The notes under the pieces: generated by a model
The model's database searches: none
Told to the model about the DNA's origin: nothing
What the model saw: the letters and a program-made list of their open reading frames with translations, nothing else
Part shown: positions 36,349 to 55,700 of the stretch, in pieces
Layout: each line of letters starts with the position of its first letter
How positions within the stretch are numbered: position 1 is the first letter of the stretch
NCBI RefSeq assembly: GCF_003018115.1
Contig: NZ_CP027457.1
Length of the DNA stretch: 64,000 nt
Direction: 5' to 3' (one strand)
Source: Escherichia coli
GTDB lineage: Bacteria > Pseudomonadota > Gammaproteobacteria > Enterobacterales > Enterobacteriaceae
Translations under genes and position numbers: made by a program

Positions 36349-37221
36349 TCAGAAGAAAATCCAGTTCCATACCGCGCGGGCAACAGAGACCACCGAGTCA
36401 CGGACGGCACGCAGAACCGTGCGTGCAACAGAGGCAATACAGACGCTCTCCGCCGTGTCAAATATCCGGTCCACCGCACCGGTAAACTGTTCACGGGCCT
36501 GAGACCGGACAGATTCCGTGCGCAGCTCGTCCTGCAGGCGGGTCATCAGGGGGCTGGCGGCATGGTCGGGAAGCGCTGTCATGAGCGCACTGACCAGCGT
36601 ATCCAGTTCCCAGCCGGTGCGGGCCGATACGGCAACAACCGGATGTACGGGCCGGAACAGACGGAATACCGCCTCCGTTTTTTCGCGAATGTTCTGTGCC
36701 TGTGCGGGAGAAGGCTGAATGCCGGCCATATCCCATTCATGGCAGGGCTCCGTTTTGTCGGCCTGCGTCACCACAAACAGCACCTGCTGATGCCCCCGGT
36801 GCAGAATGTGTCGCCAGAAATACTCATCCACAGACAGGGCCCGGTCATCGGCTTTAATCAGCCACAGTACCAGGTCCAGTTCAGACAGAATGTTACGGTA
36901 CAGGGCTTCATACTCTGCATCCCTGTCACGGCTCTCGCCCACCCCGGGCAGGTCAGTGATAACCATGCTGTGACCGTGACCACTCAGACGGAAGCGCTGC
37001 ACTTCCCGGGTGCCGGCGTGAACATCACTGACCGGGGTGACCTCCCCCTGAAACAGTGCATTACAGAGTGAGGATTTACCGGCCCCGCTTTTCCCCATAA
37101 TGCCAATCACGGGTTCGTGACTGGTGAGTTTGCGCAGATGTTCCAGGATGTGACGGGAAAGTGAGTAAGGCAGGGAAGAAAGTGGTTTTTCAATTGCCTC
37201 AATGGCATCAGACGGATTCAT
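36349..37221 (-). CDS. yeeP: YeeP/YfjP-family GTPase
   Basis: 290 aa from ATG 37221 (MNPSDAIEAIEKPL...), P-loop GKSGAGKSSL and G3 motif DLPG. Confidence 0.8.
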   Translation of the reverse strand: MNPSDAIEAIEKPLSSLPYSLSRHILEHLRKLTSHEPVIGIMGKSGAGKSSLCNALFQGEVTPVSDVHAGTREVQRFRLSGHGHSMVITDLPGVGESRDRDAEYEALYRNILSELDLVLWLIKADDRALSVDEYFWRHILHRGHQQVLFVVTQADKTEPCHEWDMAGIQPSPAQAQNIREKTEAVFRLFRPVHPVVAVSARTGWELDTLVSALMTALPDHAASPLMTRLQDELRTESVRSQAREQFTGAVDRIFDTAESVCIASVARTVLRAVRDSVVSVARAVWNWIFF

Positions 37222-37384
37222 ACATGTATTCCCGGTGAAAAAAGACAAAACCCCGCGCACCGGAAAGATGGCGGGGGATTCACGGAGATAATATCTGTCT
37301 GAAATTATTTGAAATGCAGGTATATGCAGCTAATTTGTATCAGCTTATTGGTACAGTACTAAACCTCATCTGACAGTCCGCTCT

Positions 37385-37399
37385 GTGCCAGGAGCGGAC
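37385..37399 (+). repeat. 15-bp direct repeat, copy 1 (gtgccaggagcggac)
   Basis: Identical 15-mer recurs at 38896-38910; this copy lies inside the hairpin gtccgct-N10-agcggac. Confidence 0.5.
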
Positions 37400-37502
37400 A
37401 TTCCGATATTGAAAAGTAAATTGTCTTGCTGTATTTTTTCAGTCATAAAAATGAATAAGGATTCTCAGATGAGTGAGATATTTGAACTATTCAGTTCTAC
37501 TG

Positions 37503-38228
37503 TCAGTCCTTAAGTTTATTCATAGAAAGCCGCTCTTGGCGTTTAAGCTCATTTAAAGTGAAAAAAGCACATTTATTAGATAAAATATAAATAGTTCCTA
37601 CTAACCGATGTAAGCGCCTCATTTTTTCGGGCATAGAGAATTCAGCATTTTTGACAAACATTAAAGAATCAACCCCAGCAGAGAACATATATTGTAAACT
37701 TTCCATATTAAAAGCCTCTAGTGGATTTACTTCGTTAATATCAATACTATTAACAGACCTCTCTATTTCGAGGTAATCTTCACTTGTCATTGAATAGTCT
37801 ATTTTATGAGCGAATTTATTGCGGATAGAATTCAGCTTAACTAAAGAATTTGCAATTGAGAGAGGTAAACCTAAAGCAACACAGATCTCCAGTTTTGGAG
37901 TAAAATATCGTGATGGTTTAACGAACTGCTCAGTACCAGGCTTCCTAACATTGTTGATGAATACTTCCAAGAAATTCTCAATCAATAGGCTAAGTCTTAG
38001 CAAGACTGATGCTTCGTCATTTATACTTAGTAAAGGTGCAAATTTTTCTGCGTCAAGAAAGAAACCGAGGTCATTATTAATCGCTACATATCCAGTTAGA
38101 TTGTTATTTGACTTCATATTCATAAAAACCTTATCTTGTATATTAGCGGCATATTGTACCATAAATTGAATCGTGGTTTGTTCTAAGAATGGACACAAGA
38201 ACTTCCTCTCCTCACTCATAAGAGACAA
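37503..38228 (-). CDS. AT-rich hypothetical protein with HEPN-like Rx4H motif
   Basis: Track ORF of 241 aa (TTG start); likelier start ATG 38123 (MNMKSNNN..., AAGG RBS); motif LNSIRNKFAHKIDY fits the HEPN Rx4-6H signature; AT-rich codon usage. Confidence 0.45.
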   Translation of the reverse strand: MSLMSEERKFLCPFLEQTTIQFMVQYAANIQDKVFMNMKSNNNLTGYVAINNDLGFFLDAEKFAPLLSINDEASVLLRLSLLIENFLEVFINNVRKPGTEQFVKPSRYFTPKLEICVALGLPLSIANSLVKLNSIRNKFAHKIDYSMTSEDYLEIERSVNSIDINEVNPLEAFNMESLQYMFSAGVDSLMFVKNAEFSMPEKMRRLHRLVGTIYILSNKCAFFTLNELKRQERLSMNKLKD

Positions 38229-38230
38229 CC

Positions 38231-38267
38231 ATACTCAAATCTCCCACATTGCAGGAGATTTGAGTAT
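38231..38267. promoter_or_regulatory. perfect 14-bp inverted repeat in the divergent control region
   Basis: atactcaaatctcc (38231-38244) and ggagatttgagtat (38254-38267) separated by 9 bp; right arm contains the recombinase RBS (aggag) and first two bases of its ATG. Confidence 0.5.
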
Positions 38268-38868
38268 GAACACGTCACCGTGGAACAAAGACCGTATCAT
38301 CGCCCAAAAAAGACCACTTCAGATATCTCATATCTGGGAGATCCGAATCCGGCTTGAACTGGAAGGTAAAACGCGCGATTTAGCTCTGTTCAATATGGCC
38401 CAGGACAGTAAGCTTCGAGGCTGTGATCTGGTCAAACTCAAAGTATCGAATGTGGCATATGGTAGCTCGGTTTCAAGCAGAGAAACGGTGTTGCAACAAA
38501 AAACCGGTAACCTTGTGCAATTCGAGATAACCAAAGGGACAAGAGAAGCTGTTGCTGCATTGATAAAGCTTGGCAATTTGCACAGTAAAGACTTCTTGTT
38601 TCGGTCTCGGGTCGGAACTAATCGGCACATATCAACCCAGCAATACAGCCGAATTTTTCATGGGTGGGTAGAAAAGCTTGGTCTCGAAGCTTCGCTGTAC
38701 AGCACACAATCCATGAGAAGAACAAAACCTTACCTAATCTACAAGAAAACCAAGAATCTCCGGATCATCCAACTTCTGTTGGGTCATAAGAAACTGGAAA
38801 GCACGATCCGTTATCTGGGCATTGAAGTCGATGATGCGTTAGAGACCTCTGAATCGATTGAAGTCTAA
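38266..38868 (+). CDS. short (200 aa) tyrosine recombinase, FimB/FimE-like catalytic-domain-only architecture
   Basis: ATG 38266 with AGGAG RBS; Arg-I in SKLRGCDL, C-terminal LLGHKKLESTIRYLG with candidate catalytic Tyr; no N-terminal core-binding domain. Confidence 0.65.
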   Translation: MNTSPWNKDRIIAQKRPLQISHIWEIRIRLELEGKTRDLALFNMAQDSKLRGCDLVKLKVSNVAYGSSVSSRETVLQQKTGNLVQFEITKGTREAVAALIKLGNLHSKDFLFRSRVGTNRHISTQQYSRIFHGWVEKLGLEASLYSTQSMRRTKPYLIYKKTKNLRIIQLLLGHKKLESTIRYLGIEVDDALETSESIEV

Positions 38869-38895
38869 GGTTGTCAGAGCTGCAATAGCAGCCCC

Positions 38896-38910
38896 GTGCC
38901 AGGAGCGGAC
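38896..38910 (+). repeat. 15-bp direct repeat, copy 2 (gtgccaggagcggac)
   Basis: Identical to 37385-37399; the two copies bracket the HEPN-like gene and the short recombinase. Confidence 0.5.
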
Positions 38911-39026
38911 CTAACTAAGTTCATACAACATTGATTATTGAAGATTAGGTCAGAAATAAATACTTTATTTTGATAATTTAGTTACGTTAGAACACCGCAA
39001 TGTACAACGTAAAAATGAGGAATAAT

Positions 39027-40388
39027 ATGACTCGGAGTGAAATAAACGTCTGGGATGAGAGAAGAGGTACCAATAGTCATCGAGTGGAGGAGATTCGATC
39101 TGAAGCTCAGCACGACCTTTCTCGATTGATTCACTCGTCTGCTTTCAGACGATTACAATCCAAAACACAGGTTCTTGGTCTGGGTGAAAGTGATTTCTAC
39201 CGCACACGACTGACTCATTCTATGGAAGTCGCACAAATCGGTTCAGGTCTTCTTGCTAAGTTGAAAATAAAATATAAAGGTAAAGAGCAAGAGCAATTTT
39301 TACCAGATAACGCTCTTATGCAGGCAGTATGTCTCGCACATGATATTGGACATCCTCCATTTGGTCACGGCGGTGAGGTAGCTCTTAACTACTGTATGCA
39401 GGATTACGGTGGTTTTGAAGGAAACGGTCAGACGCTTCGCATTCTCTCGAAACTAGATAAGTATACCTTAGAACACGGACTCGATCCTACACGCAGACTT
39501 CTGCTAGGCATACTGAAATATCCGGTTAAATACTCGGAGCTAGTGGTTACAAAAGACAGAATCCCGGTCACTATCGGATCACCAAACTGGCTCTTTAAGT
39601 CATCTGATTTTAAACCTCCAAAATGCTATCTAGATTCAGAATGCGATGTTGTAAAATTTGCTCTCTCACCATTTACTGAACAGGATCGGAGGCTTTTTAC
39701 TTCCGTTGAAGATGGTCAAACTAAATCCGATCATAAAAAAGCTTCTTATAAAGCTCTCGATACAACTATAATGGATCTTGCCGATGAAATTTCGTATTCG
39801 CTGCACGATTTGGAGGATGCTATTTCTCTCGGAATGGTGACACGAGAAATGTGGATGGAGCATTTCAGTGAACATGAAACCCTATTTACTAACTGCCATG
39901 GAAAAATATTTTCCGAAACATGCCAATCTGTAGCGGATAGCCTTTTTGGTGAAAGTTACAAGAGAAAAGAGTGCATCGGGATGCTGGTTCACCTGATGAT
40001 TACAAGCGTTGAGCTTATTACAAAGAATCCAGCATTCGAATGTGGCATGCTCAAATATAATGCGGTCCTTCCGGAAGCGGTCGAAGCACTACGGTTGAAA
40101 ATTTTCAAACTGGTCAAAAATAAAGTAATTAAGCATGAAAATGTACAGCAGCTTGAATTCAAGGGACAAAAGTTGATTGTTGAGCTCTTCGGTGTGTTGG
40201 CGAACGATCCGTGTCGGTTTCTACCTGCCTCAACGAGGGAAATTTACGAGCGGCAGACTAGCTTAGACAAGAAGGCTGGTATGCGAGTCATTTGCGACTA
40301 TGTTTCAGGGATGACTGATGACTATGCAACAAAGCTTTATGAGAAGATCCTTATTCCACGCAAAGGGTCTATTTTTGACCATCTCTAA
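39027..40388 (+). CDS. dGTPase-family HD-domain triphosphohydrolase (accessory paralog)
   Basis: 453 aa from ATG 39027 (GAGG RBS); motifs RTRLTHSMEVAQIG, LAHDIGHPPFGHGGE, C-terminal CDYVSGMTDDYA; AT-rich, not at the core dgt locus. Confidence 0.8.
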   Translation: MTRSEINVWDERRGTNSHRVEEIRSEAQHDLSRLIHSSAFRRLQSKTQVLGLGESDFYRTRLTHSMEVAQIGSGLLAKLKIKYKGKEQEQFLPDNALMQAVCLAHDIGHPPFGHGGEVALNYCMQDYGGFEGNGQTLRILSKLDKYTLEHGLDPTRRLLLGILKYPVKYSELVVTKDRIPVTIGSPNWLFKSSDFKPPKCYLDSECDVVKFALSPFTEQDRRLFTSVEDGQTKSDHKKASYKALDTTIMDLADEISYSLHDLEDAISLGMVTREMWMEHFSEHETLFTNCHGKIFSETCQSVADSLFGESYKRKECIGMLVHLMITSVELITKNPAFECGMLKYNAVLPEAVEALRLKIFKLVKNKVIKHENVQQLEFKGQKLIVELFGVLANDPCRFLPASTREIYERQTSLDKKAGMRVICDYVSGMTDDYATKLYEKILIPRKGSIFDHL

Positions 40389-41372
40389 CACGGTAAGAAT
40401 GATACTCTGAGTTCAATTGACCTATAAACATTAACCAAGGCATCTACCAGGGGGGATATCAAATCCCCCCATTCTGAATTTGTTCATGCAGAATCGGTGA
40501 ACGTTCTCATCTGAGCGTTAAACGCCAATAATCATTGATCTACACTGATCATTAATACACCTTAATACCATTAGCGTCTTACTCCGTTATGAGAACAAAC
40601 GCGAACTTCCGCTGTTCGCTCAAAGCAGACCATTCGCTCAGTTAACGCATCAGTGTCGTGCTAGAAGTAGAAGTGGTTAACAACAATGTGAGTTAATCAA
40701 CGGAGAGCAGGTCAACTCTAACCTGTATCAAAAAACAAATGTGTCATAAAGATGCCGCATGCCTTAATTTGAGTATAATTGAGACGGAAGTAGACGGTTT
40801 ATGACTAGATATTGTTGATATATAGCTATTTGAAGAGTTGTAGCGCAAGCGCATAGCCCAAACTAATAACGCTACGCCCCTTATCAAAGAGCGGCAACGA
40901 TGCACAGCTCGCACGAGACAATATTCGCACAAGAAATCAGGTTCGGAAATAACCAGCTCTGGCATGGCGGGGAGAGTATCAATGGTCAGGCTTTCGGTAA
41001 GATGCGGCGGGATGAGGTCGGCGTGGGTTACAGCAGTACAAGGTCGCCCACAGAGGGTAAGCCACAGCGTGGAATCCTCGGTTTCTATCAGGGATTCGGC
41101 GAAGCGGGCGCAGTTGTCGACCAAGACGATGAAATCCATTGTGGCATTATAAGGGAACGAACAATAGATCGAGTAAATCGCAGTCAGGGACAAGGATTGT
41201 AGTCATAGAGAAGTCTCCTGTAACGGTTTTCAGGAGGCTAATCCCGACGCCTGATTTCGCAGGCGCGGAAAGAGAGGATACTGCGACCATTAATCCGCCA
41301 CAAGTCATTTACGTACATAAATCGCGCAGTCAGATCCGACTCCCACTGTAGTTCTTGAACTTGATACCACAT

Positions 41373-45456: not shown

Positions 45457-46103
45457 ATGACTACAGCGCCAGCCTCAATCCGCAAAAAGCCCTGATCTGG
45501 CGTATCGTCCATCGGGACAATATCCCGTGGATTCTGGACAATGGTCTGCACTGCGGCAACAGCCCGGTGCAGGCTGCTAACTGGATCAATATCGGCAACC
45601 CGGAGCTTATCGGCAAGCACGCCGGACATCCGGTACCTGTCGGGACGGGCGGGACACTGCGTGACTATGTGCCATTTTATTTTACCCCCTTCTCGCCAAT
45701 GCTGATGAACATCCACAGCGGACGTGGCGGCATTAAGCAACGCCCCAATGAAGAGATCGTTATTCTGGTCAGCAGCCTGCGGCACGTGGCAGCACACGAC
45801 GTGCCCTTCGTGTTTACCGACAGCCATGCTTACTATAACTGGACCAACTACTACACCAGTCTGGATAGTCTGGACCAGATCGACTGGCCCATTTTGCAGG
45901 CACGGGACTTTCGCCGCGATCCAGACGATCCGGCTAAATTTGAACGCTATCAGGCAGAGGCGCTAATCTGGCAACACTGCCCGATCTCGCTGCTGGATGG
46001 GATAATTTGTTACAGCGAAGAGGTCAGGTTACAATTAGAACAATGGTTGTTTCAGCGTAATCTAACAATGTCCGTTCACACACGGGCTGGATTGGTACTT
46101 CTC
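45457..46103 (+). pseudogene. darT: DarT-like (DUF4433) ssDNA ADP-ribosyltransferase, N-terminus disrupted by frameshift
   Basis: ATG 45457 with AAGGG RBS reads [12 protein letters not shown] then stop; one extra A in the A5 run 45484-45488 would give [34 protein letters not shown]... continuous with track ORF 45567; candidate catalytic Glu in [10 protein letters not shown]. Confidence 0.6.
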
Positions 46104-47171
46104 ATGATCACATATACACAAGGCAATTTACTGGACGCACCGGTGGAAGCTCTGGTGAATACGGTTAATACCGTCGGTGTCATGGGGAAAGGCATCGCGT
46201 TGATGTTTAAAGAGCGCTTCCACGAAAATATGAAAGCCTATGCCCTCGCCTGCAAACAAAAGCAGGTGATCACCGGCAAAATGTTCATTACCGAAACCGG
46301 GGAACTGATGGGACCGCGCTGGATTGTTAATTTTCCGACCAAACAGCACTGGCGCGCTGACTCCCGCATGGGGTGGATTGAAGATGGCTTACAAGACTTA
46401 CGTCGATTTTTGATTGAAGAGAACGTGCAATCCATCGCCATTCCACCGCTGGGCGCAGGCAACGGTGACTTGAACTGGCCGGACGTTCGGGCGCAGATTG
46501 AATCTGCCCTTGGCGACCTTCAGGACGTTGATATCCTGATTTACCAACCAACTGAAAAATACCAGAACGTTGCCAAAAGCACTGGCGTAAAAAAGCTCAC
46601 TCCCGCCAGAGCCGCCATCGCTGAACTGGTGCGTCGCTACTGGGTATTGGGGATGGAGTGCAGCCTACTGGAAATCCAGAAACTGGCCTGGCTGTTACAA
46701 CGCGCCCTTAAGCAGCATCAACAGGACGATATCCTCAAACTGCGGTTTGAAGCTCACTATTATGGCCCCTATGCGCCCAATCTGAACCATCTGCTTAATG
46801 CGCTGGACGGCACCTATCTTAAAGCCGAGAAACGCATCCCGGACAGCCAACCGCTGGATGTGATCTGGTTTAACGATCAGAAAAAAGAACACGTTAATGC
46901 GTATCTGAACAGCGAAGCCAGAGAGTGGCTACCGGCGCTGGAGCAGGTCAGCCAGTTAATTGACGGCTTTGAATCGCCGTTTGGTCTGGAGCTGCTGGCA
47001 ACCGTAGACTGGTTGCTGAGCCGTGGCGAATGTCAACCAACACTGGATTCCGTTAAGGAAGGGCTGCACCAGTGGCCTGCGGGCGAACACTGGGCCAGCC
47101 GTAAGTTGAGGCTGTTTGATAATAATAATCTGCAATTTGCCATTAACCGCGTAATGGAGTTCCATTGCTGA
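46104..47171 (+). CDS. darG: DarG-like macrodomain antitoxin
   Basis: Starts [39 protein letters not shown] with [10 protein letters not shown] macrodomain motifs plus a C-terminal domain; in this sequence in frame with the DarT-like region, no intervening stop. Confidence 0.7.
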
Positions 47172-54289: not shown

Positions 54290-55700
54290 CTACCTGTTTA
54301 GCTGTTTCAATATTGTTTCAAAAGACTTTTCATTGCCTTCAAAAGGTATGACTTGCTTCACCGCTTTTCCAGGGCCTTTACCCTGCGAGTAATCCCATAT
54401 ATTGATGTGTGTGCCTTTTTCAGGATCATAATCAACACGCCAACCAACTTTTCCGTCGCTGGATTGCCGCCCTATGACTTTCCCATTACCAGCGCTGACT
54501 TCCAAACGTCCGATAACTGGCTTAGAGTCCGCTCCTAAATTACCTACAAGATCCAATGCCTTGTTTCGAGCAGTTTCCCAGTTTTTCTCTGGCTTGAGGA
54601 TTTGTTCAATTTTAGGCTGGGAATTCCCTTTAACCTTACTAATTCCCCCAAATGCTGACGCCGCAGCGCTCGCGACTATTCCCGCCTGAACTTCATCCAA
54701 ACCGTATTCTTCTTGGAGTGCTTCCGAGACTTTGTTGGTCGCGACAACCCCTTCAGCCTGCATTTGCTGCGCAAAAGTCGCCGTCAGATCGTAGACCATT
54801 TTGATCGGGATATCTTCACCCAGAGCACGATCTATTGCCTGCTTCACCGCCAGACTGTCAGTCAGTACATCACCGTATTTCTGCTGGCAGGTTGCCGGGC
54901 TGGCTGCACAGTCACTGATCAGTTGCTTTTGCTGTGCCGTACTCAACTCTTCGTACTTTTTGATAATACCGCCGCAGTCACCGCCTTTCGCCTGACAGGA
55001 CTTCATTTCAGCGGACCAAGCATCTATCTGCTTACTGCTCAGATAGTTATTCTCAACAGCATTCTTCCCGCTTTGTGCTCCCACTGCTGCTGATGCGGTG
55101 CTGTTTCCGGTAAGACCTCCGGCCAGCCCTGCTGACACGGTTGCCAGCGTACTTATCGTTTGCTTCTGCTCTTCACTGAGGTCTGACTGTTTCACGCCCG
55201 GATACAGCATGCCGGCAATCGCTCTGACTGCCAGCTCTCCCGTTGCTGCGCCTGCTGCACCGGCAGCAACATTATTACCCTGCATTGCCGCCACTGCGCC
55301 GCCCAAAATGGCGTGAGCAATGGCGTTTACTGCCGGGTCTTTTTCTGTTGATTTCAGCAGGTGCGCCAGTTCCGGAGCCGAAGTTCCGGCCAGAGCACCC
55401 GCTAAATTACCCCCCGCCAGCCCCTGAAGCGCGGCCTGGATACCCCGCTGAATTTCACTGCCGGTACCATACTTCGCCATTTCATCCCTGTAAGCCTGCG
55501 TGTCACGCAGTTTTGCCAGATATGCCTGCCGCTGCTCTTCCGTCGCATCCGCCGGAACAGGCCCATATTTATCCTGCGCAGCCTTCAACGCATTCAGTTC
55601 CCCCTGCGTCCGCGCAATATCAGCCACCTGACTGCCTATGTCACTGATAAGCCCCACTGTCTGCAGACGCTGCTGCTCTTTTTCCTTGTCAAAGATGGAA
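54290..55700 (-). other. orphan cdiA-CT fragment (pre-VENN region plus toxin domain), no start codon of its own
   Basis: VENN motif ([13 protein letters not shown]) about 200 aa into track ORF 54290-55657; frame open to about 55736; upstream part homologous to cdiA pre-VENN sequence. Confidence 0.65.

Follow-up and report, generated by a model that had tools for sequence, protein, structure and literature searches.

A small tyrosine recombinase, two classes of inverted 24-bp sites, and a probable three-module array in an Escherichia coli genomic island

Introduction

A 64,000-nt stretch of an Escherichia coli genome (contig NZ_CP027457.1; hereafter "the window") contains two copies of the 15-mer GTGCCAGGAGCGGAC, at 37385-37399 and 38896-38910, both on the plus strand. 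Between them are two divergent open reading frames (ORFs), one on the minus strand (37503-38228) with an Rx4H HEPN-like motif, and one on the plus strand (38266-38868) encoding a 200-amino-acid (aa) tyrosine recombinase without an N-terminal core-binding domain. Are these repeats the ends of a mobile unit, and if so, of which one? A preliminary description made from the sequence alone proposed a small recombinase-mobilized defence cassette ending with the second repeat, or a recombinase-controlled switch. Its observations of the repeats, the ORFs, the motif, and the missing domain all hold: allowing two mismatches, there is no third copy of the 15-mer in the 64 kb, and shuffled sequences yield a mean of 0.08 matches and never two. 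The boundary at 38910 does not. Positions 37376-40630 are instead probably a three-module array of a site-specific recombination system, in which four 24-bp sites delimit the HEPN-like gene, the recombinase gene, and, beyond the second repeat, an anti-phage dGTPase gene (Table 1).

Table 1. Sites, modules, and a predicted RNA hairpin of the probable array (window coordinates).
Feature	Position	Strand	Description
Site A, class T1	37376-37399	+	Perfect 8-8-8 palindrome, GTCCGCTC TGTGCCAG GAGCGGAC; 38.6 bits; holds first 15-mer
Module 1, HEPN-like gene (~206 aa)	37503-38123	-	Homologues begin at the Met encoded at 38123
Site B, class T2	38203-38226	-	Left end of recombinase module; 15 bits, versus 19-29 in relatives
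Hairpin over recombinase Shine-Dalgarno sequence and AUG	38230-38268	+	CATACTCAAATCTCC / loop / GGAGATTTGAGTATG; 15-bp stem
Module 2, 200-aa tyrosine recombinase, catalytic domain only	38266-38868 (ATG at 38266)	+	Pfam PF00589
Site C, class T1	38887-38910	+	Right end of recombinase module; AGCAGCCC CGTGCCAG GAGCGGAC; 24 bits; holds second 15-mer
Module 3, anti-phage dGTPase gene	39027-40388	+	Module span 38911-40606
Site S4, class T2	40607-40630	-	GTCTGCTT TGAGCGAA CAGCGGAA on - strand; 32.5 bits

Two classes of 24-bp site

The 15-mer corresponds to the spacer and outer arm of a core-type site of 24 bp, consisting of an 8-bp arm, an asymmetric 8-bp spacer, and an inverted 8-bp arm (arm consensus GTCCGCTY ... 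RAGCGGAC). There are two spacer classes, which agree at six of eight positions: T1, TGTGCCAG, and T2, TGAGCGAG as read on the other strand. The 15-bp repeats first described are real, but as parts of longer sites, two more of which lie on the other strand. Scanned with a weight matrix derived from 24 sites, the window has exactly four (A, B, C, and S4), and 20 shuffles have none; a candidate at 54527 was dismissed as being inside a coding sequence and without a palindrome. It was an early concern that the 15-mer might be a common genomic repeat. Common it is, but the functional-looking site family to which it belongs is confined to the cargo bays of mobile elements, and scans of the flanks of recombinase loci show many solo sites of both classes.

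Homology to the island backbone, as found in thousands of E. coli islands and in that of strain SW071611 (L089, described below), stops at 37399-37405, that is, at site A. Site A is the left docking site, at the end of the conserved backbone upstream of a YeeP-like GTPase gene, and S4 is the right docking site, where the backbone resumes. Site B is degenerate in the window, reading TTCCTCTC CTCACTCA TAAGAGAC on the plus strand versus GTCCGCTC CTCGCTCA TAAGGGAC in relatives. The inner arm of site C is divergent; the right-end site in relatives reads AGCAGCCC TGTGCCAG GAGCGGAC. As A equals the left arm of B plus the right part of C, a simple insertion model was considered, with A as an attB entered by the recombinase module. 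It was rejected: the B and C spacers differ and are inverted, and solo sites of both classes exist.

Two further observations concern the spacers. Reciprocal T1/T2 hybrid spacers, TGTGCGAT and TGAGCCAG, are present at two sites in a Rac-like prophage (L004/L005 12853, minus strand, and L004 19781, plus strand); these could be the trace of a rare T1 x T2 event, or simply mutations. In another locus (L006, 12925-14411), an IS110-family element (NCBIfam NF033542, 182 bits) lies exactly within a T2 spacer, whose intact counterpart is found in L007 (10712-10735). Similar targeting, of attC or repetitive extragenic palindromic (REP) sequences, is known for IS1111/IS110 elements.

Orientation and arrangement of the sites

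The distribution of sites was surveyed in 21 loci totalling 394 kb, with a threshold of at least 20 bits. Of 81 sites, all 43 of class T1 are on the same strand as the recombinase, and all 37 of class T2 on the opposite one. There is no orientation polymorphism among these 80 typed sites, and the five genomes carrying the window locus are colinear. Successive sites run T1 to T2 in 29 cases and T2 to T1 in 16, with 14 same-type neighbours. Modules between a T1 and an inverted T2 are 0.55-5.7 kb long, with one of 11.5 kb; their genes point either way and seem to have upstream regions of their own.

Seven T2-T1 junctions are compact, with 40-42 bp between site starts, for a composite of 66 bp. 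In four loci the recombinase module fills a T2-T1 junction, with site starts spaced at 684-685 bp. For single-strand folding of the 66-bp junction in the manner of an attC site there is no clear sign: DNA folding predicts two small hairpins or one long hairpin at similar energies, with no preference for the long one.

Evidence of exchange at the sites

Two comparisons of closely related loci bear on what happens at the sites. The Enterobacter locus L006 and the Hafnia locus L007 are 99.8-100% identical apart from a 2.6-kb indel, and the single L007 site, GGCCGTTC TGTGCCAG AAGCGGAT, combines the left arm of L006 site 1607 with the right arm of site 4203 in the same locus, joined in the spacer that they share. 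By its sequence, the L007 site is a T1 x T1 recombinant between direct repeats; precise gain or loss of segments between such repeats in related genomes, as first predicted for the window, does occur here.

The second case involves both classes. Locus L089 (E. coli SW071611) is the same island as in the window, with flanks 91-96% identical. Homology ends at 37399, the end of site A, and resumes at 40616, inside the S4 spacer. Between its own T1 and T2 sites L089 has a single module, 99.3% identical to a module of the lambdoid-prophage array L087. Both of its sites are hybrid: at T1 the island arm GTCCGCTC is joined to the prophage-type TGTGCCAA GAGCGGAC, and at T2 the island arm GTCTGCTT plus TG is joined to the prophage-type AGCGAG GAACGGAC. 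Because each thus combines an island outer arm with a prophage spacer end and inner arm, the L089 bay is best read as having had its content replaced by two crossovers, each within an 8-bp spacer. Homologous recombination between the unrelated backbones cannot account for it.

The recombinase and its module

The 200-aa protein matches Pfam Phage_integrase (PF00589; E=1.7e-14) over residues 34-184, leaving no room for a core-binding domain; the N-terminus is a conserved stretch of only ~30 residues. Profile searches match XerD, XerC-like proteins, XerA, and XerH, and profile alignment of residues 33-183 to the XerD catalytic domain gives the catalytic set R51, K79, H148, R151, H174, and Y183. 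(A phmmer search of the PDB with the single sequence found nothing, where the profile search succeeded.) An AlphaFold model, with a predicted local distance difference test (pLDDT) score of 84, has as its best fold matches the catalytic domains of XerA, XerH, Cre, and lambda Int, with probability 1.0; the IntI4 structure ranks only 37th. Among curated families, PADLOC has no match for it, and NCBIfam only Xer-type models, which are the best, and an invertase model, all scoring far below their cut-offs; PHROGs matches are to generic integrase families. The FimB/FimE-like architecture first suggested does not extend to family membership, the match to the tyrosine-type DNA invertase model PRK09871 being 19.7 bits (cut-off 222) and restricted to residues 105-184. 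Homologues form more than 7900 clusters at 90% identity, nearly all of 200-203 aa, and are 57-93% identical from Enterobacterales to Pseudomonas, Halomonas-type bacteria, xanthomonads, and Burkholderiales. Small tyrosine recombinases ~30% identical to it are also found in temperate phages of Gram-positive bacteria (for example Streptococcus phage Javan290, 12975-13448; Bacillus phage phi105, 25208-25720), mid-genome and away from the expected position of the main integrase.

The window copy itself is unusual. The R-K-H-R-H/W-Y catalytic set is complete in the family but not here, where residue 148 is Q: box II reads QSMRR, with H in all 25 aligned relatives. In all, it departs from these relatives at six invariant positions (H148Q, G13A, D62N, P83L, R125Q, and V181I); other family members deviate at none to two. 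Because of the catalytic substitution H148Q and the degenerate B site, the window array is probably a fossil, movable only by recombinase supplied in trans.

A predicted RNA hairpin (Table 1) covers the Shine-Dalgarno sequence and AUG of the window gene, at -21.3 kcal/mol (z=-7.1). When 20 diverse family members were each folded separately, the Shine-Dalgarno sequence was paired in a hairpin in 19, with differing sequences. Keeping of the structure but not of the sequence suggests tight translational control, as is common among transposases.

The ~710-bp recombinase module is present in 895 of 5426 complete E. coli genomes, with differing neighbours on both sides, and on plasmids of Klebsiella, Pantoea, Enterobacter, Kosakonia, and others; most matching records are at least 90% identical. 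In a set of 14 loci representing E. coli and 11 other Gammaproteobacteria (mostly Enterobacterales), its identity is 86-96%; homology begins and ends precisely where sites B and C have their outer edges (38910 for C in the window), with unrelated DNA beyond. The repeats are recombination-site material linked to a tyrosine recombinase gene, as the preliminary description supposed. In a plasmid collection, 565 Klebsiella records, mostly non-mobilizable, match the module. Many of these seem to carry truncated copies, because only 99 plasmid records overall cover at least 80% of it.

Linkage of gene and sites extends to distant recombinase clades (Halomonas-type bacteria, Pseudomonas, xanthomonads), where the layout is unchanged but the inverted terminal sites have a clade-specific sequence, shared by solo sites close by. 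In Vreelandella these sites read GACTGCTA TCGGCCAA GAGCAGTC; Pseudomonas and xanthomonads have CCGGCCAR-type spacers. Enzyme and site, judged from these sequences, co-vary across the clades.

Module contents and docking bays

The HEPN-like ORF of the window extends as far as a TTG at 38228, but the start in all homologues is at the Met of 38123. Its RNKFAH (Rx4H) motif is invariant in 14 homologues. The match to Pfam HEPN_RiboL-PSP is borderline (E=8e-4); a stronger one, to phrog_5712 (E=6.6e-46), is to a PHROG of unassigned function. The family is very small, with 21 protein clusters, all unannotated, and has no match in PADLOC or, by tblastn, in phage records.

The dGTPase of module 3 is recognized by NCBIfam NF041026 (560.5 bits, cut-off 400) and by the PADLOC dGTPase model (5.8e-144). 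A module 97% identical to it is found in the Rac-like prophages L004 and L005, likewise preceded by a T1-like site; homology with the window begins within site C. In these prophages a perfect T1 follows the dGTPase module, and after it come another gene, a B site, and a recombinase remnant of 99 bp.

Modules elsewhere carry Lamassu LmuA/LmuB; a LysR regulator with a hydrolase; a restriction endonuclease with an HNH endonuclease; DUF6530; a cation-diffusion transporter with cytochrome b; a TonB/ABC iron-uptake operon; and an ETEC_3214 family protein. Most of the neighbouring cargo is related to defence, and in this respect the proposed association with defence is borne out.

A second kind of docking bay is the DUF977-hokD hotspot of lambdoid prophages. 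In 11 sampled prophages without a recombinase gene, the cargo there is preceded by a T1 site (plus strand) in 10 and followed by a T2 site (minus strand) in six. The backbone-side arm is constant (GTCYGCTT in seven of 10) and the cargo-side arm variable. Cargo at this hotspot includes AbiH, SIR2 with adenosine deaminase, an ABC-three-component system, SMEK, AIPR, DUF4209, and NUDIX with HAD, among others. In the lambdoid loci L087 and L090-L100, where this is a known variable region, T1 is usually 70-100 bp past the DUF977 gene and an inverted T2 often precedes hokD, even without a recombinase gene. Junction-like 76-mers are found with at least 80% query coverage in 793 genomes.

The window array itself sits in a CP4-44-like island adjoining tRNA-Ser, and the locus query is 100% identical to E. 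coli strains 1303 and 2014C-4135. The annotated order begins with a CbtA/YeeU module, an Ag43/Cah autotransporter, and the YeeP-like GTPase (36349-37260, minus strand), and continues with a hypothetical protein, a "tyrosine-type recombinase/integrase", the anti-phage dGTPase, a helix-turn-helix-like gene, and a type I restriction-modification system. The AT-rich block noted earlier is evident at 37400-38200, over the HEPN-like gene (32-35% GC, versus 55-62% on the left side), but does not stop at the second repeat: GC content of 39-45% persists through the recombinase and dGTPase genes up to ~40.8 kb. Downstream of the array, between hsdS and hsdR, is a DarT (frameshifted)/DarG toxin-antitoxin pair (window ~45490-47170; L001 23293-24972).

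Possible mechanism and alternatives

The sites probably work as follows. Monomers of the 200-aa recombinase, whose gene is housed inside one T2...T1 junction, would bind the 8-bp arms and exchange strands within the spacer. T1 x T1 recombination between direct repeats would excise or integrate circles of a module plus a junction. One T1 x T1 and one T2 x T2 crossover between two molecules, by way of a cointegrate and its resolution, would swap the content of a docking bay; a single module could not simply drop out, its T1 and T2 sites having different spacers and opposite orientations. Their incompatibility is suggested by the spacer differences and by the absence of hybrids. The recombinase is the putative catalyst at both classes of site, and passage through cointegrates or circles the presumed route. 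Bays of this kind are found in CP4-type islands (between the YeeP-like GTPase and type I restriction-modification genes), at the lambdoid DUF977-hokD hotspot, and on plasmids, and hold defence genes as well as other accessory genes.

How general this might be is a larger question. We see about an even chance that it is an integron- or pdif-like platform, in which a dedicated 200-aa recombinase without a core-binding domain and two incompatible, inverted 24-bp sites provide a general mechanism for swapping anti-phage and accessory modules among lambdoid-prophage hotspots, CP4-type islands, and plasmids, across Gamma- and Betaproteobacteria; its docking sites would be the DUF977-hokD hotspot and the bay that lies upstream of the gene for the YeeP-like GTPase.

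Several points count against the proposed system. With its six substitutions at invariant positions, H148Q among them, the window locus may be inert. Many bays have no recombinase gene in cis, and no more than 895 of the 5426 E. coli genomes have one. The recombinase-proximal arms of B and C match the arm consensus poorly, at four to five of eight positions. Alternation of the classes is not absolute, there being T1-T1 and T2-T2 neighbours and gene-bearing T2-to-T1 intervals. In the arm beside the dGTPase module, two of eight bases differ between the window and the Rac-like prophages despite the 97% identity of the module, which fits a crossover inside the spacer imperfectly. Finally, the link between protein and site is drawn from sequence, and the catalyst might instead be a host recombinase.

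This last point leads to an alternative that is unlikely but has some arguments for it: that another enzyme, host Xer-type or other, or another route acts on the sites, and the 200-aa recombinase is a selfish passenger in a T2-T1 junction. Most bays lack the gene in cis, the pdif/xrs modules of Acinetobacter rely on host XerCD (PMC11705084), and the IS110 element in a T2 spacer indicates that these sites attract other elements. Against it, the gene stays linked to sites of co-varying sequence in Enterobacterales and as far away as Pseudomonas and Burkholderiales; an 8-8-8 layout suits an enzyme that is a catalytic domain only; and the sites, judged by eye only, are unlike the 11-6-11 layout of dif. 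The two-gene cassette originally proposed, with the HEPN-like gene and the recombinase moving as a discrete defence element via the 15-bp direct repeats, is rather less probable still. Sites A and C are indeed directly repeated T1 sites, T1 x T1 indels do occur elsewhere, and the HEPN motif is conserved. But the pair is found in only five of 5426 genomes, all with the identical locus, versus 895 with the recombinase module and other, unrelated neighbours; a T2 site lies between the two genes; neither an empty site with one 15-bp copy nor another location of the pair was found among the genomes compared; and the HEPN-like protein lacks a match in phage records or PADLOC.

The other possibility raised in the preliminary description, a FimB/FimE-like phase switch in which the recombinase would invert the segment between inverted repeats and toggle the neighbouring genes, is very improbable. 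The size of the protein and its lack of a core-binding domain would suit such a switch, as would the mutual inversion of T1 and T2 with six of eight spacer positions in common, and the reciprocal hybrid spacers at two L004 sites. Against it are the strand-fixed orientation of all 43 T1 and 37 T2 sites in the 21 loci and the same orientation in all five genomes with the locus, an invertase-family score far under the cut-off, and module genes that lie in either orientation, apparently with upstream regions of their own. Hardly any weight can be given to an atypical relaxase of the MpsA/TcpM kind, nicking hairpin oriT sites so that the island is mobilized by conjugation, even though tyrosine-recombinase-related relaxases do exist in SGI1 (PMC6414798) and the sites here are GC-rich inverted repeats adjoining the gene. 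The catalytic tyrosine of MpsA is at residue 319, hence in a protein of well over 300 aa, and MpsA requires MpsB, for which there is no such partner at the locus; moreover there are many sites per locus, in prophages as well, and reciprocal hybrid junctions are typical of conservative site-specific recombination.

Significance and comparison with known systems

Defence systems cluster in prophage, satellite, and island hotspots with quick turnover, yet for the most part there is no explanation of how elements without common ancestry trade cargo so precisely. In the present case, exchanged cargo begins and ends at one particular pair of sites, to which one particular small recombinase is linked, and the crossovers map to 8-bp spacers. 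If the proposed system is real, it would provide a concrete and testable mechanism for hotspot turnover; the T1...T2 signature would delimit cargo, and could be used in mining for new defence genes; and a natural recombinase of such small size, paired with two orthogonal 24-bp sites, might be useful for cassette-exchange engineering.

The recombinase-and-site system appears to be widespread and undescribed. A search of the full-text literature and for sequence strings found no published description of it, although coverage was incomplete and there may be an earlier one. Gamma-Mobile-Trio elements, P2/P4 hotspots, and the MpsA system of SGI1 were considered, and each differs from it. FimB/FimE invertases are like the present recombinase in being ~200 aa long, with a catalytic domain only, and in acting on short inverted repeats, as the recombinase would at T1 and T2. 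Sequence similarity to them is negligible, however; no invertible promoter element was found in the present system, and its products are exchanges and indels rather than inversions.

The closest analogues are integrons and the Xer/pdif modules of Acinetobacter. As in integrons, there is a tyrosine recombinase and there are exchangeable cassette arrays, in which the junctions between cassettes are composite and imperfectly palindromic; the T2-linker-T1 junction of 66 bp is similar to the R''-L''...L'-R' layout, cassettes could leave as circles by direct-repeat recombination, and arrays store defence genes. Unlike integrons, the recombinase is of 200 aa, versus ~320 aa for IntI, and does not have the IntI-specific additional domain; module genes are in either orientation and often make up whole operons, up to ~5.7 kb; folding shows no clear attC-like single-strand hairpin; and crossovers are in an 8-bp spacer, as in classical double-strand sites, with bays bounded by two incompatible classes.

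The Xer/pdif modules are reported to undergo cointegration rather than excision, with compatibility set by site sequence (Blanchais et al., PMC11705084). Both pdif/xrs and the T1/T2 arrays have accessory modules bounded by short core-type sites in inverse, alternating orientation, on several kinds of replicon; in both, a lone module could not simply excise, exchange probably proceeds via cointegrates, and the central region would govern compatibility. The differences are in the sites, which are 8-8-8 rather than 11-6-11, without apparent resemblance to dif, and in two dedicated spacer classes; in the putative enzyme, a dedicated 200-aa recombinase encoded within a junction rather than host XerC/XerD; and in the hosts, which are islands, lambdoid prophages, and plasmids of many Proteobacteria, with cargo rich in anti-phage genes.

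The proposed exchange also has an engineered counterpart. In cassette exchange with Cre and heterospecific lox sites, two incompatible sites flank a cassette, and two crossovers swap it. The T1/T2 arrangement would likewise have two mutually incompatible flanking sites, but it is a natural one, and its sites are inverted.

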